From: a plasmid
Reading direction: 5' to 3' (one strand)
Length of the DNA: 64,000 bases
Sequence record: OW967251.1
Positions 38,621 to 64,000 of this stretch are shown here, in pieces. The notes below the pieces were generated by a model that was given only the letters and a program-made list of their open reading frames with translations, was not told the origin of the DNA and made no database searches. The position numbers and the translations under genes were made by a program. Position 1 is the first letter of the stretch. Every line of letters starts with the position of its first letter.

Positions 38621-39418
38621 TTAAGCCAGAGGGCTCATGACTCGTCGTCGCAGTAACTCGAAGCCAGCTCGACCGTACATCTGCCGTTTCAGCATCTTCA
38701 GGCGGTTTACATGGCCTTCCACAACGCCATTACTCCATCTGCTGCTTATCGCTTCGTGTATTGCTGTTGCATCCGCTTCCATACCGGCCGCAACACGCTG
38801 AAGGTCAATGAGCCCACTTTGACTGACGTCAGAGAACCATTGATTTAACTGCGATTTATTCTTCGTTTTCAACATTCGATAGAAGTCGAGCGACAGCTGT
38901 TGCGCCATTTTCAGTTGCGGTTCTTTCTGGCACATCGATTCGATGAAGCGGGATGCATAGTTTTCTTCTCCTCTGATCATTCGCCAGGGCATTAACCAGC
39001 GGCTTACTCTGGATGCTGAGGGGAGTCGAACTGGGGCGATAACGGGACTGTTAACCTGCTTACGCCACTTAGCCACAGCATCCCTGACCGTCGTTTCGCT
39101 CCCGGTGAAGCCAGCATTTACCATCTCCCGCCATAGCTGCCCGGCATTATGGTTACCGTTTATCCGTTGTTCTTCCAGCCATTCCTGCCATGGTTCAAGT
39201 AACCCGGGTCTGGGTGGCTTAGTTGATATTTCAGGGAACGCTTTTGACTGTATCCACCGGCGAACCGTCACCCGGGACAGTCCGGTGATACGCGATATTT
39301 CTCTTATCCCACAACCCTTTTTATGAAGAGAGTCTACCTCAGCCCAGCGCTGATACCGTTTGTCACGTTGCTCTCGTTTAATACGTTCAGGGCGACGTAA
39401 CGTTGACGTTGGCACCAA
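38621..39418 (-). CDS. ISL3 transposase C-terminal part
   Basis: 265 aa ending ...WSNGVVEGHVNRLKMLKRQMYGRAGFELLRRRV. The split from the N-terminal ORF occurs near a T6G6 run at 39437-39448. Confidence 0.7.
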   Translation of the reverse strand: MVPTSTLRRPERIKREQRDKRYQRWAEVDSLHKKGCGIREISRITGLSRVTVRRWIQSKAFPEISTKPPRPGLLEPWQEWLEEQRINGNHNAGQLWREMVNAGFTGSETTVRDAVAKWRKQVNSPVIAPVRLPSASRVSRWLMPWRMIRGEENYASRFIESMCQKEPQLKMAQQLSLDFYRMLKTKNKSQLNQWFSDVSQSGLIDLQRVAAGMEADATAIHEAISSRWSNGVVEGHVNRLKMLKRQMYGRAGFELLRRRVMSPLA

Positions 39419-39425
39419 AGACGCT

Positions 39426-40241
39426 TCAGCATTCTGTTTTTTGGGGGGATAACTCGGTGGCCACCAGTCGTATCAATGGCATGTGTCTGTACATCATGCG
39501 CTCCAGCGCATCACCAATATTCTTCAGCAGATGCCAGCGATCGGCCACCTGTATTGCCTGCGGTGCACCATCGCGAGCAGCTAACGCATAGATCCCCCCA
39601 CGATCGCGTGAGACGACCTGTATTTCTGGGTATTTTTTGAACCATGCCGCCAGAGTGCGTTGCTCCCGGCCTGGCAGTAACACCAGGGGGCGATGGGTAT
39701 CAAGATTTACGATCAGTGTGCCGTACCTGTGGCCCCGATGCCATGCCCACTCGTCAATACCAACATGCCTGGTCCGGTTCTCTGTTTGTTCCGGAGCTTG
39801 AACCACTCTGCGCAGTAAAGTATCCGCGCTGATCTGTATTCCTGAAGCTACTGCAGCTCGTCTCCCTGCTTCACCACCTGCGATAAGCCCCAGCTGATGC
39901 TGCAGATTTTTCAGCAATGCAGAAGACTGCTGCTGCGGGCCTGCAAAGGGAGCAAGCGATTCAGCAAAAATTTTACGTGAACAGGAAGGGTTACGACAGT
40001 ACCAGTGCCGGATGGCGAAGACTAACCAGAGGGCCTGGCCTGAGCATGGAAGATGCTGTACTCGCCTCCGCCGGCAACTATGAACAGAATGACTGTGCGT
40101 GAGGCACTCAGGACATGATGCCGTTTTACGTGTGGCGCGGAGATGGAGGGTTATTCCATCAGTACCAGTAATCTGTCGGCAGGTTTGCCACCCGCGCGGT
40201 AGCTGTAAAAGTCTCTTAAGTGAGGCCATTTTGTTATACAT
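39426..40241 (-). CDS. ISL3 transposase N-terminal part (zinc finger plus DDE start)
   Basis: 271 aa with CPEC...H.H zinc ribbon and DEWAWHRGHRYGTLIVNLDTHRPL. Confidence 0.7.
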   Translation of the reverse strand: MYNKMASLKRLLQLPRGWQTCRQITGTDGITLHLRATRKTASCPECLTHSHSVHSCRRRRVQHLPCSGQALWLVFAIRHWYCRNPSCSRKIFAESLAPFAGPQQQSSALLKNLQHQLGLIAGGEAGRRAAVASGIQISADTLLRRVVQAPEQTENRTRHVGIDEWAWHRGHRYGTLIVNLDTHRPLVLLPGREQRTLAAWFKKYPEIQVVSRDRGGIYALAARDGAPQAIQVADRWHLLKNIGDALERMMYRHMPLIRLVATELSPQKTEC

Positions 40242-40336
40242 AACTTAAAACAGCTTAGATCCTTGTTAACTAAAAAGTTTCATCAATTTTTGTCCACCTA
40301 AGTTGCGGAAGACCCACTTTTTACCCGTTGTTGACA

Positions 40337-40812
40337 GCGGAGCACACCTTAACCCCGTGGTAAGCCTGATTTTTTATCTGATCGGGGCCTGCTCTTTCAG
40401 GGCAACCATGAATTACATCGTGGCTCAGTTGTTAGGGGCCGGCGCTGCTGCACTGTGCCTGAAGGCTGTCTTTGGCCACTCCCTGCTGGCCGGGGTGACC
40501 CGGGTCCATATGGGGGTATCACTGTACAATGCCTTTTTCATCGAAGGTGTCATGACTTTTATTCTGATTATGAGCATCCTAACGACCAGAAACCCCGCGA
40601 TTATCAGCATTGCTGTTTTTCTTGATGCTTTTATTGGCGGGCCGCTGACGGGGGCAAGCATGAACCCGGCCCGTAGCTTCGGGCCGGCATTGGCCATGGG
40701 ATACTGGGATAATCAGTGGCTGTACTGGGCCGCTCCGCTGTCTGGCGGGCTTGCAGCTGTTGCGTGCTGCCAGCTGTTTATGCCGCAACTGAAGTCACCC
40801 TCACCGGAATAA
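40337..40812 (+). pseudogene. MIP-family aquaglyceroporin (AqpS/GlpF-like), 5'-truncated by the ISL3 element
   Basis: Frame begins inside the ISL3 IR. Two NPA boxes (SGAHLNPVVS, GASMNPARS) but about 60 N-terminal residues are absent. Terminator hairpin follows at 40826-40860. Confidence 0.7.
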
Positions 40813-40861
40813 AGTCCCTTCCAGGACAGAATGCCTCTGATGAACAGAGGCATTCTTTTTT

Positions 40862-41389
40862 TCAGCAACCCACTGTCCGGCTACGCCTTTCCAGAATGAG
40901 AACATCTCTCCATTTTCCGTTCATTTCACCCACATTTTCCCGGCAGCCGACTTCCCTGAATCCCTGGCTGCGATGTAAAGCAACACTGGCCTGGTTTTCC
41001 GGAAAGATGCCAGCAAGTAGCGTCCAGAAACCCGCACTTTCCGAGCCCTTTATCAGCCCGGAGAGCAAAGCCCTGCCCGCGCCTTTTCCCTGAAAATGAG
41101 TACTGACATAAATGCTCAGCTCTGCGACACCGCGGTATGCATGCCGGCGGGAAAAAGGAGATAGCGCAGCCCATCCCACCACTCTGTTATCAACAGTGGC
41201 GACGTAGCGGCAGTCCTGAAGATGCCCTTCATTCCATTCCAGCCACTCAGGTGCTGCGGTCTGAAAGGTGGCGTTCCCTGTTGCAATTCCTTCCTGATAA
41301 ATTTCCCTGACTGCACACCAGTCCTCTTCGTGCATTTTTCTAATGATGATCTCTGCCATTTCTCTGTACCGTATGTTTGCTGTATTCAT
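40862..41389 (-). CDS. GNAT N-acetyltransferase, PAT (phosphinothricin acetyltransferase) family, ArsN1-like
   Basis: 175 aa; PAT-like ATVDNRVVGWAAL...YRGVAELSIYV...QGKGAGRALL. Divergent from arsR2. Confidence 0.7.
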   Translation of the reverse strand: MNTANIRYREMAEIIIRKMHEEDWCAVREIYQEGIATGNATFQTAAPEWLEWNEGHLQDCRYVATVDNRVVGWAALSPFSRRHAYRGVAELSIYVSTHFQGKGAGRALLSGLIKGSESAGFWTLLAGIFPENQASVALHRSQGFREVGCRENVGEMNGKWRDVLILERRSRTVGC

Positions 41390-41690
41390 AGGCAGTCAGA
41401 AAACGAGCCTGCCTGGGCTTCCCGGCGGCGGGACATAATGCGCCCGTCAGCAAAGGATGAAGGTCATTTTATTTTTAGCGGGAATCGGTTTCTACTGTGA
41501 CGGATTCATATGCATTTTTCCATATATATTGTGACGTACCTCATTTCTGAGAGGTATAAACACCGATCATGTTTTCTCCATGCCGCGTAAGTGTAAGGCC
41601 CCGGAGATGGAGTCATATTATGGACGTGGTTGCGCTCACTATATATTTCTATTATTCTGGAAATATAGAAATAAAATTACGAGGAATGGG

Positions 41691-42017
41691 ATGGAGCTGA
41701 AAATCGCCGCGATGGTGCTGAAAGAACTTGGCCACACCACTCGTCTCGATATTTACAAAACACTCGTTAAGGCCGGACGTCAGGGACTGCCCGTGGGGGA
41801 ACTGCAGCAACATCTCGCCATTCCGGCCTCGACCCTGAGTCATCATCTTTCATCGCTGATATCCGTCTCACTGGTTCGCCAGGAAAGGCAGGGGAGAACA
41901 CTGTTCTGCCACGCCTGTTATGACAACCTTGCTGCATTGATTGCCTTTCTGACAGAAGAGTGCTGTGCAGACGAATATGCCCCGCCTGGTTTTATGTCAC
42001 CACCGGAGAAAAAATGA
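41691..42017 (+). CDS. arsR: ArsR/SmtB-family repressor, atypical: lacks the ELCVCDL site and has C-terminal Cys73/76/91/92
   Basis: 108 aa; [23 protein letters not shown]; FCHAC...EECC. Confidence 0.7.
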
Positions 42018-42727
42018 TTGCTGAACTGAAAAATGTTGTTCCTGAGCTGTTTGATACAGGTCGCACCGGGGTCCGCCTGGGTGTAAAGACAGTTGACCAT
42101 CCTCCCCGGATCCTGATGTTGTACGGTTCCGTTCGAGAGCGGTCCTACAGCCGTCTGGCCACCGAAGAGGCTGCCCGGCTTCTTACCGCCATGGGTGCGG
42201 ATGTCCGCATCTTTAATCCTTCCGGTCTCCCTCTGCCGGATGATGCAGCGGATACGCATCCCAGGGTTATGGAACTTCGCGAAATGGTGCGCTGGTCTGA
42301 AGGGATGGTATGGTGCTCTCCTGAACGTCATGGTGCGATGACCGGCATTATGAAAGCCCAGATTGACTGGATACCACTATCAGAGGGCGCAGTACGCCCT
42401 TCTCAGGGAAAAACCCTGGCCGTCATGCAGGTCTGCGGAGGCTCCCAGTCTTTCAATGCGGTAAACCAGATGCGTATTCTTGGCCGCTGGATGCGAATGA
42501 TTACTATACCTAATCAATCCTCGGTAGCGAAAGCCTGGCAGGAGTTTGATGAAGACGGACGGATGAAACCATCCCCGTACTACGACCGTATTGTGGATGT
42601 AATGGAAGAGCTGATGAAGTTTACCCTGCTGACCCGGGAGTATGCAGCGTATCTCGTCGATCGCTACAGTGAACGTAAAGAGTCGGCAGAAGCACTTTCC
42701 CGGCGGGTGAATCAGAGCAAAATCTGA
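42014..42727 (+). CDS. arsH: ArsH (NADPH-dependent FMN reductase / organoarsenical oxidase)
   Basis: 237 aa with [15 protein letters not shown] motif. Start overlaps the arsR2 stop. Confidence 0.85.
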
Positions 42728-42735
42728 GGGCTGGT

Positions 42736-43281
42736 ATGAGTGATGTAACGGCATTCAACAACTGCATGAGCGTGTTCTGGCAACAGCATGAAGCAGAGCT
42801 CTCCCGTTTTCTGGCATCAAGGACAGGCGATCGGGAGCAGGCAGCCGATCTGCTTCAGGAAGTCTTCCTGCGCGCCCGGGCCTGTGCAGACCGCTTCTGT
42901 GAAATGGAGAACCCGCGGGCCTGGCTGTACCGGACGGCGAGGAATCTGCTGACGGATGAGTACCGTGCCGCCAGAGACGTCGTGGTGCTGGAAGACGAGA
43001 TCCCGCTGCCTGACGCCTTCCATGAGGCGGTTTCAACGCTGGAGATTTGCCTGCCTGAAACCCTGCAGGCCTTACCTGACGAGGAAAGATGGCTGATAGA
43101 AGAGGCCGATCTGAACCGGCGTCCCCAGCAGCGCCTGGCCGACGAGCTGGGGATCACGCTGACGGCGTTTAAGTCGCGCCTGCTTCGCGCCCGGAAACAT
43201 CTGAAGAAGACGATGACGGAACTCTGCCAGGTGGAAGTGGATGATGCGTCTTCCGTCTGCTGCCATAAAAAAATGGATTAA
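42736..43281 (+). CDS. ECF-type sigma-70 family factor with a C-terminal Cys-containing tail
   Basis: Region 2 (AADLLQEVFLRA...RAWLYRTARNLLTDEYR) and region 4 (LPDEERWLIEEADLNRRPQQRLADELGITLTAFKSRLLRARKHL), then tail TMTELCQVEVDDASSVCCHKKMD. No anti-sigma ORF adjacent. Confidence 0.7.
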   Translation: MSDVTAFNNCMSVFWQQHEAELSRFLASRTGDREQAADLLQEVFLRARACADRFCEMENPRAWLYRTARNLLTDEYRAARDVVVLEDEIPLPDAFHEAVSTLEICLPETLQALPDEERWLIEEADLNRRPQQRLADELGITLTAFKSRLLRARKHLKKTMTELCQVEVDDASSVCCHKKMD

Positions 43282-43356
43282 CCGCGCATCTTTTTCCCGC
43301 CTCACTCGTTTACCTCAGTGTAAAGCCCCATCATTCAACACTGAGGTAAACAGTCC

Positions 43357-43719
43357 ATGTCAAAAATTGAGATCTTTGAAGCCGCAGGCTGCTGTGCGAC
43401 CAGCAGCGTCGTGGTCAGCGATGAAGCCGTCAAATGGAACGCCAGCGCCGAATGGGCGAAAAAGCATGGTGTGAATATTCAGCGTTACAGCCTGGCAAAG
43501 AACCCGCAGCAGTTCCTGAATACGCCCGTCATCAGGGCCTTCCTGAACACGTCAGGAATGGAGTCCCTTCCCGCTACCCTGCTTGACGGCCAGCTGGTGA
43601 TGGCGGGCAAGCTCCCGTCCCGGGAAGATATCGCCCGCTGGGCCGGTATTTCCCTCACGCAGGACTGGAATGAAGACAGCACGCAGCCGCGCTGCTGCAG
43701 CATTCCCCGTATGCCTTAA
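43357..43719 (+). CDS. arsD: Divergent ArsD-like metallochaperone paralog
   Basis: 120 aa; thioredoxin-like ArsD architecture. Keeps the N-terminal CC (GCCATSS) and a C-terminal CC (PRCCSIP) but not Cys18. Confidence 0.6.
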   Translation: MSKIEIFEAAGCCATSSVVVSDEAVKWNASAEWAKKHGVNIQRYSLAKNPQQFLNTPVIRAFLNTSGMESLPATLLDGQLVMAGKLPSREDIARWAGISLTQDWNEDSTQPRCCSIPRMP

Positions 43720-43737
43720 TCCCGGAGGAGCTCAACA

Positions 43738-45494
43738 ATGACGATGCCATTTTTACAGAATATCCCCCCGTTTATCTTCTTCACCGGCAAAGGCGGCGTG
43801 GGGAAAACCTCTCTGGCCTGCGCGACGGCGGTATGGCTGGCTGACCAGGGCCGGAGAACGCTTCTGGTCAGTACCGATCCGGCCTCCAATGTCGGTCAGG
43901 TCTTCAGCCAGACTGTGGGCCACCGGATCACTGGTATCCGCACCGTGGAAAACCTTGCGGCAATGGAAGTTGACCCGATGGCGGCCGCGCAGGCTTACCG
44001 CGATCGCGTGCTCGATCCTGTTCGTGAACTGATGCCTGCCGATGTCATCAGCAACATTGAAGAACAGCTTTCCGGTTCATGTACCACGGAGATCGCGGCG
44101 TTTGATGAATTTACCGCGCTGCTGACCAGTCATGAACTGCGCGAAAAATATGATCATATCGTCTTTGATACTGCACCAACCGGACACACCATCCGTATGC
44201 TTGAGCTGCCGGGCGCCTGGAGCGGGTACCTCGATGCACATCCTGATGCTGCGGCGAACCTCGGCCCTCTGGTGGGGCTGGAGAAACAACAGGACCAGTA
44301 CGCTGACGCAGTGAAAGCCCTCTCTGATACGGCACTCACGCGACTGGTTCTGGTTGCCCGCGCACAGGCGTCGACCCTGAAAGAGGTCTCCCATACCCAC
44401 GAGGAGCTGTCGGCTATCGGTCTGCAGCATCAGCACCTTGCCATCAATGGCGTGCTGCCTCCCTTTGCCGGTGAACAGGATCCGCTGGCGCACAGTATTC
44501 TGGCGCGGGAGGAACGGGCCTTACGGGCCATGCCTGAAAACCTCGCGCATCTTCCCCGGTCGATGCTGTATCTGAAGCCTTTTAATCTGGTTGGTCTGGA
44601 AGCCCTGAGGGCGCTGTTTACAGAGAGCACACTTGTTCTGCCGGATCCGGGAGCCACGCTCACGACGGTCGATTTACCGGAGCTTGCCTCCCTGGTGGAG
44701 GACCTCAGCCGAGCGGGAAAAGGGCTGGTCATGACGATGGGAAAAGGGGGCGTGGGGAAAACCACGGTGGCGGCTGCGGTCGCGGTCTCGCTGGCCAGAC
44801 GCGGTCATAAAGTCCACCTGACCACCTCCGATCCGGCAGCCACCTGTCTTACACCCTGGATGGCTCGCTGCCAGGCCTTCAGGTCAGCCGTATCGATCCA
44901 AAAGCAGAGACTGAGCGCTATCGTCGCTTTGTGCTGGAAAATCAGGGAAAAGGTCTGGATGAAGAGGGACTGGCGGTACTGGAGGAAGATCTCCGTTCCC
45001 CCTGCACCGAAGAGATTGCCGTGTTTCAGGCATTCTCCCGGATCATCAAAGAGGCCAACGACCATTTTGTCATTATAGACACTGCGCCCACCGGGCATAC
45101 GCTGCTGTTGCTGGATGCAACCGGGGCCTATCACCGGGAAATGGTGCGCCAGATGGGGCAGGCTCACGATCACGTGATAACGCCAATGATGCAGCTGCAG
45201 GATCCGGAGAAGACCAGAGTCATTATCGTGACGCTTGCCGAAACCACGCCGGTACTGGAAGCGGCCGGGCTGCAGCAGGACTTACGCCGGGCCGGGATTG
45301 AACCCTGGGCGTGGGTCATCAATAACAGCCTCGCGGCCGCGAAGCCGTCCTCCCCGTTCCTGGTCACCCGTGCCCGTCGCGAACTGCCGCTGATCGACGA
45401 CGTTGCCGGGCATTATGCACAGCGCATTGCCCTGACGCCACTGCTGAAGGACGACCCGGTAGGCGTGGACCTGCTGGCTGAAATGGCGGGCTGA
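43738..45494 (+). pseudogene. arsA: ArsA arsenite-stimulated ATPase paralog with a frameshift near 44836-44846
   Basis: N-terminal half with GKGGVGKTS P-loop reads to about 44838. The second half (HLSYTLDGSLPGLQVSRIDP..., second P-loop at 44750) continues in another frame to 45494. GCAGCCACCTG versus expected GCAGCCCACCTG. Confidence 0.75.
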
Positions 45495-45615
45495 CAGGTG
45501 GGGCGACGCCCTACCTCCACTTAAAACATTTCCTTATACAGGTCATAAGATGAAGCGCTTAATCTGCCGTCGCGAATTCCGGTAGTGTGTCAGTCAACGT
45601 CACAGGAGTCATACA

Positions 45616-46152
45616 ATGCACATTATCAATGCTGAAGAGCAGCACATTCCCGCCATACGGCGCATTTACGCCCATCATGTCCTGCACGGCACAGGCAGCT
45701 TCGAGACGGAACCCCCGGACACGCAGGAAATGCTTGCCCGGGTGAAAAATGTTCAGTCACGTGGATTTCCCTGGTATATCGCCCTGCAGGGGGAGACGGT
45801 CATCGGCTACTGTTATCTCTCCCGCTACCGCGAACGCCATGCCTACCGGTTTACGGTTGAAAATTCGGTGTACATCGATCCGGCTTATCAGCGGCAGGGG
45901 GGCGGAAAAGCCTTACTCGATCATGCCTTAACATGGGCCCGGTCTCAGGGATACCGCCAGATGATAGCGGTTGTGGGGGACAGTGCGAACGTCGCGTCTG
46001 TAGCGCTGCATCTTCGCGCCGGATTTACTGAAATCGGCACGCTGAAGGACATCGGTTTCAAGCATGGCCGCTGGCTGGACACGGTGTTGCTGCAGCGTCA
46101 GCTGGGAAAAGGGAGCTGTACGCTGCCGGACAGTCCGGTACCCGGACGCTGA
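45616..46152 (+). CDS. PAT-family GNAT acetyltransferase (ArsN1-like)
   Basis: 178 aa; ALQGETVIGYCYL...YRFTVENSVYIDPAYQRQGGGKALL. Confidence 0.7.
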   Translation: MHIINAEEQHIPAIRRIYAHHVLHGTGSFETEPPDTQEMLARVKNVQSRGFPWYIALQGETVIGYCYLSRYRERHAYRFTVENSVYIDPAYQRQGGGKALLDHALTWARSQGYRQMIAVVGDSANVASVALHLRAGFTEIGTLKDIGFKHGRWLDTVLLQRQLGKGSCTLPDSPVPGR

Positions 46153-46160
46153 GGCAGGAG

Positions 46161-46182
46161 AAAGGGGGCATCGCCCCCTTTC
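46161..46182. terminator. Bidirectional terminator between the arsN-like gene and arsC
   Basis: AAAGGGGGCATCGCCCCCTTTC. Confidence 0.55.
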
Positions 46183-46184
46183 GG

Positions 46185-46610
46185 TTATTTCAGCCGTTTC
46201 CCTGCCTCATCTACTACTTTCTCGCCGTCTTCCTTAGCAAATGCGCCTTTTTGCGCATCCGGAAGAATATCCAGTACCACTTCGGAAGGGCGGCACAGAC
46301 GCGTTCCCAACGGTGTCACCACAATCGGACGGTTAATCAGGATCGGATGCTGAAGCATAAAATCGATTAACTGATCGTCAGTAAACTTATCTTCCTCAAG
46401 CCCCAGTTCTTCATAAGGCTCGACGTTTTTGCGCAGCAAAGCCCGGACTGAAATGCCCATATCTGCAATGAGTTTGACCAGCTCATCGCGTGACGGTGGA
46501 TTTTCAAGGTAATGAATAACGGTCGGTTCATTACCACTGTTGCGGATCATCTCCAGCGTATTACGCGACGTGCCGCAGGCCGGGTTGTGATAAATGGTGA
46601 TGTTGCTCAT
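46185..46610 (-). CDS. arsC: Arsenate reductase ArsC (glutaredoxin-coupled, R773 type)
   Basis: 141-aa MSNITIYHNPACGTSRNTL with catalytic Cys12. Confidence 0.9.
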   Translation of the reverse strand: MSNITIYHNPACGTSRNTLEMIRNSGNEPTVIHYLENPPSRDELVKLIADMGISVRALLRKNVEPYEELGLEEDKFTDDQLIDFMLQHPILINRPIVVTPLGTRLCRPSEVVLDILPDAQKGAFAKEDGEKVVDEAGKRLK

Positions 46611-46622
46611 ATCAGTATCTCA

Positions 46623-47912
46623 TTACAAAGTGAAAGAGAGACGTAGCGCCAGCGCTGCCAGCGTTACAAACAGCACAGGCAGAGTCATGACGATCCCGGT
46701 GCGGAAATAGTATCCCCAGGTGATGGTCATATTCTTCTGTGAAAGGACATGCAGCCAGAGCAGCGTTGCCAGGCTACCAATAGGTGTAATTTTAGGTCCC
46801 AGATCGCAGCCAATCACGTTGGCGTAGATCATCGCTTCTTTGATAACGCCTGTTGCGGTGCTTCCATCGATAGAAAGAGCGCCAACCAGCACGGTAGGCA
46901 TGTTGTTCATGATGGAAGACAGGAAAGCCGTCAGGAAGCCAGTACCCAGCGTTGCAGCCCAGAGTCCTTTATCCGCAAGTACATTCAGCACACCTGAAAG
47001 GTATTCGGTTAGCCCGGCGTTGCGCAGACCGTAGACCACCAGGTACATCCCCAATGAGAAGATGACGATCTGCCATGGCGCACCGCGCAGCACTTTGCCA
47101 GTTTTAATGGCATGGCCTCGTTTAGCTACTGCAAACAGGATCACAGCTCCAACAGCCGCAATCGCGCTAACGGGAATACCAAGCGGCTCAAGGACAAAGA
47201 ACCCAACCAGCAGAAGTATTAAAACTATCCAGCCGGTTCTGAAGGTTGCCAGATCTTTAATCGCTTTTGCCGGTGCTTTCAGAAGAGCCAGGTCGTAAGT
47301 CGGTGGGATATCCTTGCGGAAGAACAAATGCAGCATAACCAACGTGGCAACAATGGCTGCAATATCCACCGGCACCATTACCGACGCATACTCGGTGAAG
47401 CCCAGTCCAAAGAAGTCTGCAGAAACGATGTTAACCAGGTTGGACACGATAAGCGGCAGGCTGGCTGTATCGGCAATAAACCCGGCAGCCATGACGAATG
47501 CCAGTGTCGTGCCTTTGCTGAACCCTAATGCCAGCAGCATGGCGATGACTATCGGCGTCAGAATAAGTGCCGCACCATCGTTGGCAAACAGTGCCGCCAC
47601 CGCTGCACCAAGCAGAACGATATACGTAAAGAGCAAACGGCCACGACCGTTACCCCAGCGCGAAACATGCAATGCCGCCCATTCGAAAAAGCCGGACTCA
47701 TCAAGCAGCAGGCTGATAATAATCACGGCAATAAAGGTCGCCGTCGCGTTCCAGACGATATTCCACACCACCGGAATATCGCCCACATGCACAACGCCAG
47801 ATATCAGAGCCAGTCCCGCGCCCAGCATTGCACTCCAGCCGATCCCTAATCCCTTTGGTTGCCAGATAACCAAAACAATGGTCAGGACAAAAATAGCGCC
47901 TGCCAGTAACAT
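46623..47912 (-). CDS. arsB: Arsenite efflux permease ArsB
   Basis: 429-aa, 12-TM. Confidence 0.9.
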
Positions 47913-47959
47913 AAAACCTCCTGACAGGGCGACTTTGTCGCCCTGTAGATGTCAAAAAA

Positions 47960-49711
47960 TTAACTCATCAACTCTCTGAGCTTTTCAATACCGGCGGGCT
48001 CTGACGCCAGCACCGGAACAAGCGCTATACGGTCAGCATGCTGATTCTTAACAGCCTCAATCTGAGGCAGTTCCTGTTGAGCACGCTGACAAAGCAACGG
48101 AGAACGCGTATCCGCAATGGAAAGGCTGTTATTGATAATCCAGCCCCACGGATGAATCCCCGCTCTTTCAAGGTCAGCCTGCAGGTTTGCCGCTTCCAGC
48201 ACCGGTGTGGTTTCAGGAAGCGTAACCAGCAGAACTTTGGTTCTATCCGGGTCCTGAAGCTGCATCATGGGGGTAGTAAAATGACCTTTACTCCCCATTT
48301 TTTTGGCAATCTCTCGGTGATAAGCCCCGGTCGCATCCAGCAACAGCAGCGTGTGTCCGGTAGGGGCGGTATCCATGACAACAAAGCGCTTACCCGCTTC
48401 ACGAATCACACGGGAGAAGGCCTGAAACACGGCAATTTCTTCAGTACAGGGAGAGCGTAAATCCTCTTCCAGTAACCGTTTCCCTGCTTCGTCCAGATCT
48501 CTTCCCTTCGTCTCAAGAACATGCTGGCGATAGCGTTCGGTTTCATCGTGAGGGTTGATGCGGCTGACCTGCAGGTTTTTGAGGCTGCCGTTCAGCGTTG
48601 TACTCAGGTGCGCAGCAGGATCAGAGGTCGTGAGATGCACGTCAAATCCCATGTCGGCCAGCCTGACGGCGATGGCGGCAGCCATCGTGGTTTTCCCTAC
48701 ACCACCTTTGCCCATCAGCATAATCAGGCCGTGTTCACTGCGAGCGATATCATCGACCAGGCCAGAGAGTGATAAGTTTTCAGGCGTGTACAGGATGTTC
48801 GTTACCGGGAGCGGTAATGCCTCAGAACGGGTAGCCAGCAGTCCCTTCAATGCTGAAACACCAACCATATTGACTGGCTGGAGTAACAGGGTATCTGTCG
48901 GTAGCTCAGATAAACCGGCAGGAAGATTTGCCAGTGCCTCCTGCTCACGTTGCCATATCGCCGCGGCCAGGGCGTCATGTTCAGCTTCGGCTTCAGGCAG
49001 CACACCATTAATCACCAGATATTGATTTTTCAGGCCAATCTCAGCCAGTTCCTCATGAGTGCGGGCGACTTCCTGCAGCGTAGAATTTTGCAGTCGTGCA
49101 ACCAGAACCAAGCGGGTACGTTCAGGGTCGGATAACGCCTCTACCGCATGAGCATACTGCTCACGCTGCTTTTCCAGCCCGGCCATCGGGCCAAGACAGG
49201 AGGCACCATCTGGATTGCTTTCAATAAAGCTACTCCAGGCACCAGGAAGCTGGAGAAGGCGAATCGTGTGGCCCGTCGGCGCGGTATCAAAAATGATGTG
49301 ATCGAAACGGGTCAGCAGGGAAGCGTCTGTCAATAAGCCGGTGAACTCATCAAACGCCGCAATCTCAGTGGTGCAGGCTCCTGAAAGCTGCTCGCTGATA
49401 CTGTTAACAACGTCATCAGGCAGAAGACCTTTGATAGGATCAACGATTCTGGCCCGATATTGCCGGGCGGCTTCCTGCGGGTCAATCTCCAGAGCAGAAA
49501 GCCCAGGAACTGCTGTCACAGGGCGAATCGTGTTACCGATAGCCAGATCGAATACCTGACCGACATTGGAGGCCGGGTCGGTACTGACCAGCAAAACCCG
49601 CTTACCCTGTTCGGCAAGGTGGATAGCCGTCGCGCAGGAAATGGAAGTTTTTCCTACACCACCCTTGCCAGTAAAAAACAGGTAAGGCGGGATATTCTGT
49701 AATAATTTCAT
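47960..49711 (-). CDS. arsA: Arsenite-stimulated ATPase ArsA
   Basis: 583 aa from MKLLQNIPPYLFFTGKGGVGKTS. Two P-loops and metalloid-binding Cys. RBS AGGAGG is 7 nt upstream. Confidence 0.9.
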   Translation of the reverse strand: MKLLQNIPPYLFFTGKGGVGKTSISCATAIHLAEQGKRVLLVSTDPASNVGQVFDLAIGNTIRPVTAVPGLSALEIDPQEAARQYRARIVDPIKGLLPDDVVNSISEQLSGACTTEIAAFDEFTGLLTDASLLTRFDHIIFDTAPTGHTIRLLQLPGAWSSFIESNPDGASCLGPMAGLEKQREQYAHAVEALSDPERTRLVLVARLQNSTLQEVARTHEELAEIGLKNQYLVINGVLPEAEAEHDALAAAIWQREQEALANLPAGLSELPTDTLLLQPVNMVGVSALKGLLATRSEALPLPVTNILYTPENLSLSGLVDDIARSEHGLIMLMGKGGVGKTTMAAAIAVRLADMGFDVHLTTSDPAAHLSTTLNGSLKNLQVSRINPHDETERYRQHVLETKGRDLDEAGKRLLEEDLRSPCTEEIAVFQAFSRVIREAGKRFVVMDTAPTGHTLLLLDATGAYHREIAKKMGSKGHFTTPMMQLQDPDRTKVLLVTLPETTPVLEAANLQADLERAGIHPWGWIINNSLSIADTRSPLLCQRAQQELPQIEAVKNQHADRIALVPVLASEPAGIEKLRELMS

Positions 49712-49728
49712 ATGTCCTCCTGACATAT

Positions 49729-50091
49729 TCAGCAACAGGAAGTATTACCACCACAGCAACTGGTGGGAGCTAACCCTACCTTCTCCAGCGGAATACCGAA
49801 CCAGCGAGCCAGCTCAGCGCGTTTTGGGTATCGCCCAGCCATCACCGTTTCGCCGTCCAGCAACAGCAGCGGAAGCCCTTCTGCGCCGGATGCATCGAGG
49901 AAGGCTTTCGCTTTCTCATTGTGAACAAAGCTCATGGGCTGCTGCGCCAGGTTGTAACGTTCAACCTGTACGCCACGTCCTTTCAGCCACTGCATATCAG
50001 CAGAAAAATCAACCAGAACCTGATCGACATCTGAACCACATACACCGGTACTGCAGCACATTGCCGGGTCAAACACCGTTAACGTCTTCAT
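49729..50091 (-). CDS. arsD: Arsenic metallochaperone and repressor ArsD
   Basis: 120-aa MKTLTVFDPAMCCSTGVCG...CCGGNTSCC. Confidence 0.9.
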   Translation of the reverse strand: MKTLTVFDPAMCCSTGVCGSDVDQVLVDFSADMQWLKGRGVQVERYNLAQQPMSFVHNEKAKAFLDASGAEGLPLLLLDGETVMAGRYPKRAELARWFGIPLEKVGLAPTSCCGGNTSCC

Positions 50092-50140
50092 TCTGAATAC
50101 CTCATACATTCGAAAAAACACATATGTTCAGGCAAATTTT

Positions 50141-50491
50141 TTAGATGCAAACAGCCTTACCGCTACCAGAGCAGTTTGCCGATGCCAGCTTACGGGCGAT
50201 GGCCTGTACGTCGTCCTGTTGGCTTAACCAGGCCTGCTCAATCACCTGAGCAGCCCAGGAAGGAATATGCGGGGATAAGCGATAATGAACCCATTTCCCC
50301 TGCTTGCGATCCAGCAATAGACCGCTTTCCCGGAGCATTGCCAGATGACGGGAGATCTTGGGCTGGGACTCATCCAGCGCCGTGCAGAAATCGCAGACGC
50401 ACAGTTCTCCCAGCTCCCTGAGCAGCAGGACAATACCCAGACGGGTTTCATCGGACAGGTTTTTGAAAAGCTTAAGGGCTGTAAGGGGCAT
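50141..50491 (-). CDS. arsR: Arsenical resistance repressor ArsR (canonical ELCVCDF site)
   Basis: 117-aa MPLTALKLFKNLSDETRLGIVLLLRELGELCVCDFC. RBS AGGAGG. Confidence 0.9.
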   Translation of the reverse strand: MPLTALKLFKNLSDETRLGIVLLLRELGELCVCDFCTALDESQPKISRHLAMLRESGLLLDRKQGKWVHYRLSPHIPSWAAQVIEQAWLSQQDDVQAIARKLASANCSGSGKAVCI

Positions 50492-50848: not shown

Positions 50849-51118
50849 ATGGATGAGAAAGTATTCTTTCACCTGAGTTATGAAACCATGCTTGGCGACA
50901 CGGAAGATTTTATTAACGCGTGTCTTGAACGGGCAAACCGTGCGGACTGCAATGATGCCGATGCGGAGATTGCCCGGGCACGCAGCGCGATCGAACTCTG
51001 GTACCACCTGGCGATGGCGGGCCGTGCCCCGGAAGACGTCGCCGACAGGGACCATCTGCGCCTCACCGGAATGCTCCTGCGCGCTCCCACAGCAGAACAA
51101 CGTTCATGGCAGCAGTAA
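50849..51118 (+). CDS. Hypothetical 89-aa protein (first gene of a GC-rich operon)
   Basis: RBS GGAG upstream; overlaps the next ORF by 13 bp. Confidence 0.5.
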   Translation: MDEKVFFHLSYETMLGDTEDFINACLERANRADCNDADAEIARARSAIELWYHLAMAGRAPEDVADRDHLRLTGMLLRAPTAEQRSWQQ

Positions 51119-51681
51119 CAACCTCCCGCAGGCCGTCGCCGCTGCAGCGACGGGTACTGATTGTGCTGGCCGCCCTCGATGCGAAACGTCCGGGGCCGGT
51201 GGCGACGCGGGATATCGAGCGGGTGCTGGAGCAGGGCGGGGACGCCCCGGTGTACGGACCGAACCTGCGCGCCTCCTGCCGGCGCATGGAAGCCGCGGGC
51301 TGGCTGCGCACCCTGCGCGCGCCGAACCTGCAGCTGGCCGTCGAGCTGACGGAGGCCGGTCGCGGCATTGCAGAACCGCTCTTCCAGGCAGAACGCGAGG
51401 CTGAAACGGCACGACAACGACTGACCGACGTCCGGCGTCTGCCGTTACGCCAGACGGCTGCCGGTGACGCGGTGGAGCTGCAGCTGGGTGACGGCCATTA
51501 CACCATCAGGGAAGCGGCCTACGTGATCCGTCTGGACGGTACCACCTGCCTGCAGCTGACGGATGCCGGCGGCATACGCCGGATAAAAGAGGGCGATCCC
51601 CTGCAGGTGGCCAGCTGGTATCAGGCCTGTTTTGATGCAGGCCTGCCGGTCATCGTTCAGGTGAATGAGAGCCGGGACTGA
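51106..51681 (+). CDS. Hypothetical 191-aa protein with possible N-terminal winged-helix region
   Basis: RRVLIVLAALDAKRPGPVATRDIERVL; about 70% GC. Confidence 0.5.
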   Translation: MAAVTTSRRPSPLQRRVLIVLAALDAKRPGPVATRDIERVLEQGGDAPVYGPNLRASCRRMEAAGWLRTLRAPNLQLAVELTEAGRGIAEPLFQAEREAETARQRLTDVRRLPLRQTAAGDAVELQLGDGHYTIREAAYVIRLDGTTCLQLTDAGGIRRIKEGDPLQVASWYQACFDAGLPVIVQVNESRD

Positions 51682-52698: not shown

Positions 52699-53894
<1,196 letters not shown>

Positions 53895-58890: not shown

Positions 58891-59003
58891 AGCAGCATGA
58901 GTGCGGCGATGCAGCCAGTGATGACGAGCCAGCGCCGGATGAATCGATCCGGCTCCGGGCGGCTGTAGGGGTCGGGTAGGTCACGTCATTCTCCATGTTG
59001 AAA

Positions 59004-59966
59004 TCAGCGCCAAAGGCCGCCAGTGCGCCAGCGTGGCGGACGTGGTGATACGGTCACTTCGGGGTCGAAACGGGCCGATGGAAACGGCGGCATCGCGGGC
59101 GGCGGAGCTAGTTCTAGCAAGCGCTCAATGCGTTCAGCCGTCGCTGGATGCGTGCGCAACCAGGAGGGTTCCGGATTGCCCCATCCGGGCAGCAGCCAGG
59201 CGCGCCAGGAGCGGCTCACCCGCTCGATCTTGGCGAGCGCTGAGGCCAGCCCGTGCGGGTCGCCGGTCAATTCGGCAGCGAGCCGGTCGGCGTCGAATTC
59301 GCGCACCCTGGACAAGCCCAACTGAGCCAGCAAGGCCAGCTGTGGCGCGACCGCAAGTAGAAGCAACGCGGGCCAATTGACTTCCGTGACTCCAAGCAAT
59401 AGCGTTGGCAAACTGAGCACGATCGCAAGCTGCCCCAACAAGGCCAGAAGATGGGTGAGCCGGCTGATGGAATCGGCCAAGCCCATGACACGCAAATCCT
59501 CGTTCGCAATATGCGCGATTTCGTGGCCGAGCACGCCGGTCAACTCGCGGGGCGTGAGGCTACGCAGCAGGCCGTCGGTCAGCGCGATGGCCGCGTGATG
59601 CTTCGAACCGGTGGCGAAGGCGTTGACGACCCCGCTGGGCACGTAGTGCGGTACCGGCACGGTAGGCAGCCCGGCCCGCGCCGCCAGTTCGCGCAACACA
59701 GCCCAAAGATCGGGCGCTTCATCCGGGTGCAGGGGGCGTGCGCCATACAGCCGCAAGGTCAGCCCGGAGGCGGCCGCCGGTTCAAGCAGCAGGGTGAACC
59801 CCGCAGCCGCAAGCGCCAGCCAAAGCCCGCCGTCACCCAACAGCAGGCTGCCAGCGACGGCGGCAATTCCGAGCAGGGTCAGCACCAACAGCACGGTTTG
59901 CAGGCGATTGTGCCAGCGATGCCGCGCGCCGACATTCTGCGCGTGGCGCAGATCACGACTGATCAT
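59004..59966 (-). CDS. M48-family Zn metalloprotease (HtpX-like) of the heat-resistance locus
   Basis: HEIAHIANED zinc motif. Start chosen at MISRDL (59966), 8 bp after the psiE stop; the ORF track extends it to 60047. Confidence 0.7.
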   Translation of the reverse strand: MISRDLRHAQNVGARHRWHNRLQTVLLVLTLLGIAAVAGSLLLGDGGLWLALAAAGFTLLLEPAAASGLTLRLYGARPLHPDEAPDLWAVLRELAARAGLPTVPVPHYVPSGVVNAFATGSKHHAAIALTDGLLRSLTPRELTGVLGHEIAHIANEDLRVMGLADSISRLTHLLALLGQLAIVLSLPTLLLGVTEVNWPALLLLAVAPQLALLAQLGLSRVREFDADRLAAELTGDPHGLASALAKIERVSRSWRAWLLPGWGNPEPSWLRTHPATAERIERLLELAPPPAMPPFPSARFDPEVTVSPRPPRWRTGGLWR

Positions 59967-60441
59967 CTGAGCTTTCCCCGGCTGTCCGGTCATCGCGCTC
60001 GCGCAGCAGCCAGTAAGTCGCCCCGAGGGCCAGTGTCGCGCCTGCAAGCGCCGCGACCTTGGCGGGGCCGGTCTCCGGGTCGAGGATCACGAATTTACGC
60101 GCCAGGGCGATCAGCCCGATCAGGATCACCGTCTTGACCTGGATGATGCTGTCGCGCCGCAAGGCCACCCTCACGATGGAATGCTTGAACTCCATGGCAA
60201 TGAGCAGCGTCATGATCATGCCGAACACGGTCTGGAAGACCTTGTGATCGAGCGGATTGAATGCATCAATGATCAGCAGGCTGAAGACGATCGAGATCAG
60301 CTGCAGCAGCGAGACCACGATGATAACGGCAATGATTGCGGACAGCGCGAGCGCGATCACCTGTTCAAAGCGCTCGTAGAACGTCATCACTGCCCATTGG
60401 GCGCGAAATGTTTTGATCGGGTCTGCTTGCTTTTCCTTCAT
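59953..60441 (-). CDS. psiE: PsiE-family membrane protein
   Basis: 163 aa from MKEKQADPIKTFRAQWAVMTFYERFEQVIALALSAIIAVIIVVSLL... with four TMs. Confidence 0.65.
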   Translation of the reverse strand: MKEKQADPIKTFRAQWAVMTFYERFEQVIALALSAIIAVIIVVSLLQLISIVFSLLIIDAFNPLDHKVFQTVFGMIMTLLIAMEFKHSIVRVALRRDSIIQVKTVILIGLIALARKFVILDPETGPAKVAALAGATLALGATYWLLRERDDRTAGESSDDQS

Positions 60442-61136
60442 CGCCACTCCTCTCAATTCTGAAATACTTGTGCGCCCACAACTTGGTTGCACCCTTGTCT
60501 TTTTTGCCTGGTAGAGCGCGCTGTCCGCCTGCAGCATCACCTGCTCGACAGAGTGCAAACGGGGGTCAAGGAGAGCCCCCCCCATGCTGGCGCTATAGCT
60601 GATCGACACCTCTCCACACACCACCGCTGTCGCCGCAGTGTCCTGACGAAATCGCTCCGCCCATACTTGGGCGCCTTCTATCGATGCCGCTTCCAACAAC
60701 ACAGCGAATTCCTCCCCCCAATCCGGGCAGCCATGTCGGTTGCGCGAACATGTTCCCTCAACCGTGAAGCAAAGGGGTCGGTGATCACCATACGCAGCAA
60801 CTGCTGCTCTATTTCCTTGCGAGAAGAGATGTCGAACAGAGTACCGACTATCAGTTGCCTGCCCGCGTCACCCAGCCATGGGCCTTGTTCCTCGAAAGTC
60901 GAGTTGCCAGAGGATCAGGTGAACAGATGGGCCGCGCCGTCACGCGAACGGATGGCCAGCGAGCGGGAGGGCAGTGCCGCCGCTGATGAGCAGTCCCCAC
61001 GGCGTGGCCGACTGCTCATCACGCTTGTAGACGCCCGCGTGACCTGCGGCCACGACCGCCACCGCGATCGAGGCCAGGGAGGCTGCCCATGCCAGTGCCA
61101 GGCCGATGGGGTCGGACACGGCAGCCTCGCCCGCCA
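60442..61136 (-). pseudogene. Decayed GGDEF-domain (diguanylate cyclase) gene remnant between clpK and psiE
   Basis: Minus-strand ...RLREHVRATDMAARIGG then, after a 1-nt shift at a C6/G6 run (60714-60719), EEFAVLLEAASIEGAQVWAERFRQ...LYQAKKTRV. The region between the conserved blocks is far too short for an intact domain. Confidence 0.45.
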
Positions 61137-63932: not shown

Positions 63933-63947
63933 GCTGATGCTCCTGAG

Positions 63948-63974
63948 AAGGTTGACAAGGTTGACAAGGTTGAG
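63948..63974. repeat. Three tandem 9-bp repeats (AAGGTTGAC x2, AAGGTTGAG) in the clpK 5' leader
   Basis: Read directly; on the clpK strand they are GTCAACCTT x3, ending 15 nt before the start codon. Confidence 0.6.
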
Positions 63975-64000
63975 GCGACGAGGCATCGCGAACCGCGACT

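Follow-up and report, generated by a model that had tools for sequence, protein, structure and literature searches.

The question raised by this locus is what a second arsenic module contributes to a plasmid that already carries a classic arsenic-efflux operon, and why a sigma factor is encoded inside that module. The locus lies in a 64,000-nucleotide stretch of a Klebsiella plasmid (record OW967251.1; here, the window), in which a plus-strand cluster with the order arsR2-arsH-sigma gene-arsD2-arsA2-GNAT is found beside the canonical arsRDABC operon. Arsenic resistance genes have been described as controlled by ArsR-family repressors, and we know of no other mode of control; if ars clusters encode a sigma factor that has a conserved promoter of its own, this would be an additional, unrecognized tier of regulation. 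Genes were called as open reading frames (ORFs) in six frames and then scanned with Pfam and NCBIfam profiles against curated cut-offs. These scans agreed with the initial annotation of the plus-strand genes as arsR, arsH, an extracytoplasmic function (ECF) sigma factor, arsD2, and an acetyltransferase (GNAT) resembling phosphinothricin N-acetyltransferase (PAT) and ArsN1. The gene annotated as arsA2 was homologous to ArsA_ATPase but was not a working gene, since a 1-bp deletion has made it a pseudogene, and the cluster start, placed at 41580, was an ORF artifact: the conserved start of arsR2 was at 41691, and 41580-41690 made up the operator and promoter region. The initial annotation had emphasized a specialized organoarsenical function. 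An ars-dedicated sigma/promoter pair with an associated stem-loop is the better supported and more interesting result.

Distant homologs of the sigma gene, at 34-49% identity, were surveyed by scanning one genome per species, which yielded 76 loci from Beta- and Gammaproteobacteria. About half of these had recognizable ArsR, ArsD, ArsA, ArsB, ArsH, or ArsC genes within 9 kb. The immediate upstream neighbor of the sigma gene was Acr3 in 12 of 55 cases, an ArsP_1 permease in four, a thioredoxin-like protein in four, and ArsA in three, while the immediate downstream neighbor was an ArsP_1 permease in 17 of 52. The spacers 3' of the distant sigma genes shared an ECF-type promoter motif, TGCATCC-TTTT-N10-TTCGTCT. 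A degenerate pattern written from this motif had 65 hits in the 1.23 Mb of fetched loci, compared to zero to three in block shuffles (approximately 0.35 expected), and some of the hits were in loci not yet inspected at the time of its design. Most hits were 8-250 nt after the sigma stop codon and on the same strand. The gene behind each motif was identified by a motif-anchored ORF search; in 43 of the 54 non-enterobacterial cases the first ORF encoded an ArsP_1 permease.

Several of the distant loci (L012, L029, L033, L042, L060, L078, and L080) contained second or third copies of the motif, 0.6-8 kb from the sigma gene. The genes behind these extra copies were mostly further ArsP_1 permeases, with one case each of an ArsH-like flavin mononucleotide (FMN) reductase, a thioredoxin-like protein, and an FGE-sulfatase-like protein, which suggests a small sigma regulon.

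The degenerate pattern had a single hit in the window. A position weight matrix built solely from 55 non-enterobacterial sites was run over all 64 kb, and the site at 43283-43317 scored 26.4 bits, while the next best score was 13.0. Within this site were a -35 region, GCATCTTTTT, at 43286-43295 (GCATCT at 43286) and a -10 element, TCGTTT, at 43306-43311, both in the 75-bp spacer that separates the sigma gene from arsD2. This spacer was 97% conserved over ten enterobacterial loci, whereas the coding DNA of the same loci was only about 80% identical to the window, and the motif was found at the expected position in every enterobacterial copy. In Citrobacter amalonaticus, where acr3 was inserted directly behind the sigma gene, there were two copies of the motif, one ahead of acr3 and the other ahead of arsD2. 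These comparisons provide strong evidence that the sigma factor drives arsD2-arsA2(-GNAT) in the Enterobacterales and arsP elsewhere. Most ECF systems autoregulate; there was no sign that this sigma factor does so through the motif.

The predicted sigma protein had 181 amino acids and consisted of sigma2 and sigma4 domains only (PF04542 and PF08281). The best-matching family was SigZ, with scores below the cut-offs of both models (TIGR02959, 138.3 bits compared to 168.65; NF007215, 119.4 compared to 212). In homologs down to approximately 35% identity there were conserved cysteines in region 2 (C55) and in the linker (C105) as well as an invariant C164, and the cysteine-rich C-terminal tail, C175-C176-H177, was kept in most of the 29 homologs aligned. 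The ECF238 group, which includes SigZ and CorE2, is characterized by a short cysteine-containing C-terminal extension of about 20 residues and the lack of an anti-sigma factor, and CorE2 is activated by Cd or Zn via its cysteine-containing C-terminal domain (PMC7826278, PMC8999054). The window sigma factor had such an extension. As in ECF238, no anti-sigma gene adjoined the sigma gene, whose neighbors were arsH and arsD2, and no anti-sigma family was among the 25 most frequent flanking-gene families listed for the 52-55 distant sigma loci. A CXC motif in the sigma2-sigma4 linker defines the CorE-like sigma factors, formerly ECF44 (PMC8999054); the linker of the window protein had instead the single conserved Cys105 (CLP). 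The protein thus appears to be a SigZ/ECF238-like ECF factor. A phmmer search of a representative library, used for family sizing only, returned 1,071 representatives at E ≤ 1e-10 and 18 at E ≤ 1e-30. The initial annotation had included the sigma gene among the ars genes. The occurrence of its relatives in the ars clusters of distant taxa, together with the conserved promoter, indicates that it is part of the ars system and not a passenger.

The block was 100% identical in approximately 1,000 pKPN3-type Klebsiella plasmids in PLSDB. Versions with about 81% nucleotide identity were found on E. coli chromosomes and plasmids (approximately 100 E. coli genomes), and copies with about 80% identity and an intact arsA2 were found in E. 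coli, Hafnia, Citrobacter, Kluyvera, Serratia, and Cedecea. In all of the latter genera the module was tail to tail with an arsR(DA)BC operon. E. coli, Hafnia, Klebsiella, Citrobacter, and Kluyvera contained an intact arsR2-arsH-sigma-arsD2-arsA2 series facing arsRDABC, with the GNAT gene optional, and Serratia fonticola had the same layout with an ArsD2 of about 59% identity. One E. coli chromosome had an ArsP_1 permease gene divergent from arsR2. Because the same gene order and the same convergent partner recurred at 57-92% protein identity across several genera, the module is not a chance juxtaposition. A conserved arrangement across plasmids had been suggested as a check on the cluster; order and partner were indeed conserved, and the arrangement was not rare. 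The claim that regulators and chaperones were duplicated in divergent form also held, with identities of 29% for ArsR1/ArsR2, 41% for ArsD1/ArsD2, and 62% for ArsA1/ArsA2.

The Cedecea loci had sigma-arsD2-arsA2 opposite arsRBC only, so that ArsD2 and ArsA2 are the sole chaperone/ATPase pair there and ArsB the sole ars pump. On this basis, the canonical arsRDABC operon of the window is the likely source of the membrane pump for ArsA2. ArsH was present in most of the enterobacterial copies inspected, the exceptions being Cedecea loci L088, L089, and L092. Two copies had other unusual surroundings. In Cedecea neteri (L089, 6100-6900), sigma-arsD2-arsA2 directly followed repeated tRNA-like sequences, without arsR2-arsH, so that the unit may have inserted at a tRNA locus and its sigma gene may be controlled in another way. 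In E. coli CUWW06 (L005, 10469-11724), genes for a winged-helix regulator and a TauE/SafE exporter were inserted between arsA2 and the GNAT gene.

Upstream of arsR2, the only block conserved over the ten enterobacterial loci was a 14-2-14 dyad at 41644-41673, which ended 18 nt ahead of the arsR2 ATG; the flanks could not otherwise be aligned. It has the form expected of an ArsR/SmtB operator and is a putative ArsR2 binding site. The best solved relative of ArsR2 was AfArsR (6J05), with Cys91-Cys92 of ArsR2 aligned to Cys95-Cys96, the cysteine pair of type 2 repressors. The initial annotation of this repressor as a type 2 ArsR was thus supported. The third C-terminal ligand, equivalent to Cys102, was absent in the window copy, which had extra cysteines at positions 73 and 76. 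The CC-x5-C triad was kept in the E. coli, Hafnia, and Kluyvera orthologs, and the third cysteine was present in nearly all of the distant homologs.

Based on these comparisons, the conserved enterobacterial accessory ars module probably forms a two-tier transcriptional cascade. In the first tier, ArsR2 would bind the dyad at 41644-41673 and control arsR2-arsH-sigma. In the second tier, for which the cis element is present and the activity is predicted, the sigma factor would guide RNA polymerase to the ECF promoter in the 75-bp spacer, and transcription of arsD2-arsA2-GNAT would proceed from there as far as the hairpin at 46160-46182. ArsD2 and ArsA2 would most likely energize the ArsB pump of the convergent operon, while ArsH and the GNAT would contribute enzymatic detoxification. 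The cysteine-rich sigma factor may itself sense an arsenical.

The substrate of such a cascade is suggested by the metalloid-binding cysteines. ArsD2 matched PF06953 (100 bits) and was below the NF033727 cut-off (80.6 bits compared to 90); it kept Cys12-Cys13 and a conserved C-terminal CCxIPRxP motif, and Cys18 was absent in every family member examined, down to 58% identity. The ArsA2 family kept Cys113 and Cys422, and in all copies position 172 was Asn. Thus one thiol of the three-thiol arsenite site was lost from ArsD2 and ArsA2 in every copy, and from ArsR2 in the window and several other copies. ArsH was a bona fide equivalog (TIGR02690, 401.5 bits compared to a cut-off of 292.25; PF03358, 111 bits). 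The two-cysteine sites of ArsD2, ArsA2, and the window ArsR2 suggest a ligand preference for trivalent organoarsenicals, for example methylarsenite. Considered along with ArsH and with the ArsP regulon found in the wider clade, these sites fit a module tuned to trivalent organoarsenicals without proving it. The organoarsenical specialization originally proposed is plausible, though unproven.

The acetylation of arsinothricin by ArsN1-type enzymes, which was part of the same proposal, was not upheld. The GNAT encoded at 45616-46152 scored 147.3 with the ArsN1b model (NF040504; cut-off 210) and 110 with the PAT model (cut-off 300), and the one at 40862-41359 scored 147.6 with the ArsN1a model (NF040503; cut-off 170) and 81 with the PAT model (cut-off 300). 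Because both proteins were below the ArsN1 and PAT cut-offs, 'arsinothricin acetyltransferase' describes only a family-level resemblance. The best solved relative of the former was 9igk, 'phosphinothricin N-acetyltransferase' (2e-51), followed at a distance by the ArsN1 entries 5jtf/6m7g (4.6e-22), and the PDB relatives of the latter were PAT-family enzymes.

It is possible, though doubtful, that the module handles inorganic arsenite only. In that case ArsD2/ArsA2 would be an As(III)/Sb(III) pair that serves ArsB or Acr3 with lower affinity or under different regulation, and nothing about the substrate could be read from the two-cysteine sites. The partner pumps, ArsB or Acr3, are arsenite carriers, and ArsA2 retains His148, His453, and Ser420 in addition to its two cysteines. 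Furthermore, the ArsD/ArsA pairs beside the distant sigma homologs were canonical three-cysteine proteins, and some ArsR2 orthologs kept the third cysteine. However, the losses of Cys18 and Cys172 were fixed across the ArsD2/ArsA2 family, ArsH accompanied most of the enterobacterial copies, and the distant regulon consisted of ArsP-family permeases, the family of the methylarsenite permease.

A further step beyond the two-tier cascade, which we offer only tentatively, is that the ars-dedicated, cysteine-rich ECF clade forms a second, activating layer of regulation. ArsR derepression would produce the sigma factor, which would bind As(III) or methylarsenite via C55, C105, C164, C175, and C176 and then fire its dedicated promoter, located ahead of arsP in most Proteobacteria and ahead of arsD2-arsA2 in the Enterobacterales. 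If so, this would be the first arsenical-sensing sigma factor and would make a repressor-plus-activator AND gate for organoarsenical efflux, present on approximately 1,000 clinical Klebsiella plasmids.

The spacer contained a second conserved element, a perfect inverted repeat at 43308-43351, which as RNA had a predicted folding energy of -24.6 kcal/mol (z -5.5). Its left arm starts inside the -10 element and its right arm holds GAGG, the Shine-Dalgarno sequence of arsD2. The arms were invariant among close copies, while the loop varied. Serratia, Cedecea, and Citrobacter kept the stem: two G-C pairs had been replaced by A-U in a compensatory way and two C-G pairs by U-G, and the Cedecea and Citrobacter variants also included bulges. 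An Rfam scan of 40200-46400 at E ≤ 1 gave only two eukaryotic hits at chance level, so the stem-loop matches no known RNA family. ECF-dependent transcription generally starts 6-9 nt past the -10 element, which would place the sigma-dependent start at approximately 43317-43320, so that sigma-initiated RNA would be without the left arm and translatable. Read-through RNA from the arsR2 promoter, on the other hand, may fold and mask the ribosome-binding site of arsD2. Plasmid pBIC1a is near-identical to the window, and RNA sequencing of pBIC1a without arsenic gave reads per kilobase per million (RPKM) of 21 for arsR2, 39 for arsH, and 47 for the sigma gene, compared to 9 for arsD2, 4 for each of the two arsA2 fragments, and 12 for the GNAT gene (PMC6286996). 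The drop falls at the sigma-arsD2 spacer.

An unlikely, though live, alternative to this translational gating is that the inverted repeat acts at the DNA level, as the operator of a dimeric repressor (ArsR2, ArsD2, or another) that would block the sigma promoter at its -10 region and start site. The repeat is a perfect dyad overlapping the -10 region, the ArsD of R773 was first described as a weak trans-acting repressor, and symmetrical changes in both arms would also be expected of a palindromic operator. However, the dyad upstream of arsR2 has a different sequence, and the 14-nt repeat was found nowhere else in the window. The C-G to U-G changes in two sequences and the bulges in Cedecea and Citrobacter preserve the RNA fold but break the DNA symmetry, and a half-site spacing of 16 nt is unusually wide for an operator. 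A putative RNA stem-loop that gates arsD2 translation is preferred.

The window copy of the module is partly decayed, with arsA2 frameshifted and the aquaporin gene truncated; arsR2, arsH, the sigma gene, arsD2, and both GNAT genes remain as uninterrupted ORFs. Compared to a 99%-identical intact allele (L086, NZ_CP132225.1), arsA2 had lost one C at 44839/44840, which shifts the reading frame after codon 367 or so and splits the gene into ORFs at 43738-45078 and 44931-45494. The fragments scored 575 and 280 bits with TIGR04291 (cut-off 650), so that neither had the intact two-domain form. A 40-nt probe across the deletion matched 953 PLSDB plasmids, 947 of them from Klebsiella, and the intact version matched 45. 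Sequencing error was rejected as the cause of the split, given these numbers of records for both alleles, and so was programmed frameshifting, since the sequence context in which CCC became CC is not slippery. The window arsA2 is a real, clonally inherited pseudogene. As it is dead in 953 of approximately 1,000 close plasmid copies, clinical Klebsiella can dispense with the ATPase arm. In L086 it was the GNAT gene that was frameshifted. In an E. coli plasmid (L004, NZ_CP129243.1, 9099-11614), a truncated arsA2 abutted a convergent truncated arsA1, and arsB, arsC, and the GNAT gene were gone, as if the DNA between the two inverted arsA paralogs (62% identical) had been deleted.

It is quite improbable that the module is a redundant, eroding duplicate, in which case the island would have brought in another system for inorganic As(III) that contributes little and whose sigma factor has no ars-specific enterobacterial target. 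Although the frameshifts in arsA2 and in the L086 GNAT gene, the truncated MIP (aquaporin) gene, low expression without inducer, and the occurrence of deletions between arsA paralogs would all fit, gene order and orientation were preserved across genera, arsA2 was intact in the chromosomal copies inspected except L088, the spacer was conserved more than the genes with the sigma motif correctly placed throughout the Enterobacterales, and the shared arsA2 deletion of the Klebsiella plasmids is one clonal event and not repeated decay.

Several points weigh against the two-tier cascade and the organoarsenical function suggested for it. The pairing of the sigma factor with the promoter comes from comparison alone, and the motif was defined after seeing the data, a concern that is reduced by the distant-only matrix and the hold-out loci. 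The predicted start site follows from generic promoter geometry. Covariation in the stem amounts to 2 compensated pairs among 8 sequences, which is thin and would fit a palindromic protein-binding site too, and the drop in RNA-seq signal could equally be a processing or termination site. The AlphaFold2 model of the sigma factor (29 homologs) was confident in the core, but residues 172-181 had a predicted local distance difference test score (pLDDT) below 50 and the predicted template modeling score (pTM) was 0.44; it therefore says nothing about a cysteine cluster. On the substrate side, some ArsR2 orthologs retain the third cysteine, Cys73 and Cys76 could complete a three-coordinate site in the window protein, and both GNATs are below the ArsN1 cut-offs. 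The inactivation of arsA2 in most close plasmid copies is a further difficulty.

Features of the arsenic region of the window
Feature	Position	Strand	Basis
ISL3-family element	38621-40241	-	transposase split into two adjacent ORFs, 265 + 271 aa
MIP/aquaporin gene remnant, 5'-truncated	40303-40812	+	PF00230 match limited to profile positions 65-219
Terminator-like hairpin, 12-bp stem, between MIP remnant and convergent GNAT	40828-40856	.	inverted-repeat search
GNAT acetyltransferase, ArsN1 family A-like	40862-41359	-	NF040503, 147.6 bits, cut-off 170
Putative ArsR2 operator, 14-2-14 imperfect dyad, TATTTCTATTATTC / GAAATATAGAAATA	41644-41673	.	inverted repeat and conservation
arsR2, AfArsR-type ArsR/SmtB repressor	41691-42017	+	NF033788, 62 bits
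arsH, NADPH-dependent FMN reductase / organoarsenical oxidase family	42014-42727	+	TIGR02690, 401.5 bits
ECF sigma gene, SigZ/ECF238-like	42736-43281	+	Sigma70_r2 and r4_2 domains
ECF-type promoter	43283-43317	+	motif, position weight matrix, spacer conservation
Perfect 14-nt inverted repeat, GTTTACCTCAGTGT / ACACTGAGGTAAAC, 16-nt loop	43308-43351	+	arms at 43308-43321 and 43338-43351
arsD2, ArsD family	43357-43719	+	PF06953, 100 bits
arsA2 pseudogene	43738-45494	+	ArsA_ATPase match; 1-bp deletion at 44839/44840
GNAT acetyltransferase, ArsN1 family B/PAT-like	45616-46152	+	NF040504, 147.3 bits, cut-off 210
Shared convergent terminator-like hairpin, 10-bp stem, 7 G-C pairs, loop ATC	46160-46182	.	
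Canonical arsRDABC operon	46185-50491	-	
arsC	46185-46610	-	canonical operon
arsB	46623-47912	-	canonical operon
arsA	47960-49711	-	canonical operon
arsD	49729-50091	-	canonical operon
arsR	50141-50491	-	canonical operon

The tail-to-tail arrangement with a hairpin between the two clusters, noted in the initial annotation, was confirmed: the GNAT stop at 46152 and the arsC stop at 46185 were separated by a 32-bp gap that contained the G+C-rich stem. On the plus strand only a weak T-run (GGTTATTTCA) adjoined this stem, and on the minus strand there was none. At the other end of the module, the arsH ORF start overlapped the arsR2 stop by 4 nt, and the arsenic-related block reached upstream of arsR2 to the second, minus-strand ArsN1-like GNAT gene and the truncated aquaporin gene. 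Homology of the latter to an intact 220-aa allele (in L086) began at 40336, with the first 60 or so codons lost. It is truncated by the adjoining ISL3-family element, whose split transposase ORFs correspond to the Zn_ribbon_ISL3 and DDE_Tnp_ISL3 halves, so that this element is itself probably inactive.

Several complete IncFIB(K)/IncFII(K) plasmids of Klebsiella pneumoniae, NZ_CP024193.1 among them, shared the coordinates of the window, and the region from 40250 to 46180 was 100% identical to the same positions, 40250-46180, of these records. The ars region was part of a pKPN3-type metal island with the order repB, sil, pco, ars, and then the clpK/hsp20 heat-resistance locus, which in the window corresponded to a high-G+C segment (about 65%) at 59000-64000 by comparison with the matching plasmid record. 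An IS5-family transposase gene (DDE_Tnp_1 and DUF772) at 52767-53747 had no counterpart at the corresponding position of NZ_CP024193.1, so the plasmid behind the window differs slightly from the best-matching records. Adjoining arsR, a patch of 64% G+C at 50849-51681 contained two overlapping ORFs (89 and 191 aa); neither had a Pfam match, and plasmid records annotate both as hypothetical proteins.

The module is widespread but uncharacterized: each of its protein families is already known, and its DNA is abundant under generic names. Published gene lists name the block without comment (e.g. PMC6286996, PMC12504007). In the searchable literature, which mostly does not extend to subscription journals, neither the module nor an ars-linked ECF sigma factor was found described, and there was no paper on a sigma promoter in ars clusters or on the ArsD2/ArsA2 subfamilies. 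The initial annotation regarded the gene order as an undescribed ars architecture. This was right insofar as no description was found, but the block is common and routinely annotated, in about 1,000 plasmids and 100 E. coli genomes, so that the reservation attached to the claim, that the block might be a common annotated arrangement, was half borne out. What is new is an ars system with a probable additional ECF tier. Such a sigma/promoter pair, orthogonal and possibly arsenical-responsive, could be of use in biosensors, and the two-cysteine ArsD/ArsA subfamilies could show how an ATP-driven pump adapts to organoarsenicals such as methylarsenite and roxarsone metabolites. The module is also found on pESI of Salmonella Infantis (PMC12504007). 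Because it travels with sil and pco on pKPN3-type plasmids and pESI, it bears on the co-selection of multidrug plasmids by arsenicals, which is relevant to animal husbandry and the environment.

Among known systems, the module is most readily compared to the R773-type arsRDABC operon. In both, an ArsR/SmtB repressor gene heads the operon, and arsD and arsA are adjacent and encode a thioredoxin-fold chaperone and a two-domain P-loop ATPase. However, the plus-strand module has no pump or reductase gene, its ArsD2 lacks Cys18 and its ArsA2 lacks Cys172, and arsH and the sigma gene intervene between the repressor gene and arsD, so that arsD2-arsA2 is behind an ECF promoter and not directly behind an ArsR-controlled one. 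The repressor itself has the aligned C-terminal cysteine pair of AfArsR. SpArsR, which is without Cys102, responds to methylarsenite (MAs(III)) and not to arsenite (PMC11868830), and the window ArsR2 likewise has no Cys102 equivalent; unlike either protein it has the extra Cys73 and Cys76.

The module resembles the organoarsenical detoxification genes arsH, arsP, and arsN1, known for example from ars operons of Pseudomonas putida, Campylobacter, and Shewanella, in its ArsH equivalog and its two PAT/ArsN1-like GNATs, and its relatives add the ArsP_1 permeases that follow the motif of the distant sigma homologs and the divergent ArsP_1 of the E. coli variant. It differs in that the window has no arsP and its GNATs score below the cut-offs, and the described organoarsenical systems do not include sigma-factor control. 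The sigma factor, in turn, resembles CorE and CorE2 of Myxococcus xanthus and SigZ of Bacillus subtilis, which are in ECF238 (formerly ECF44 and ECF24). All share the minimal sigma2-sigma4 form and a short cysteine-rich C-terminal extension with no anti-sigma gene adjoining, and SigZ is the best NCBIfam match. No arsenic link was reported for this group in PMC7826278 or PMC8999054. The window protein is set apart by a lone linker C105 in place of CXC, by its SigZ score, which is below the cut-off, and by its place within ars operons.

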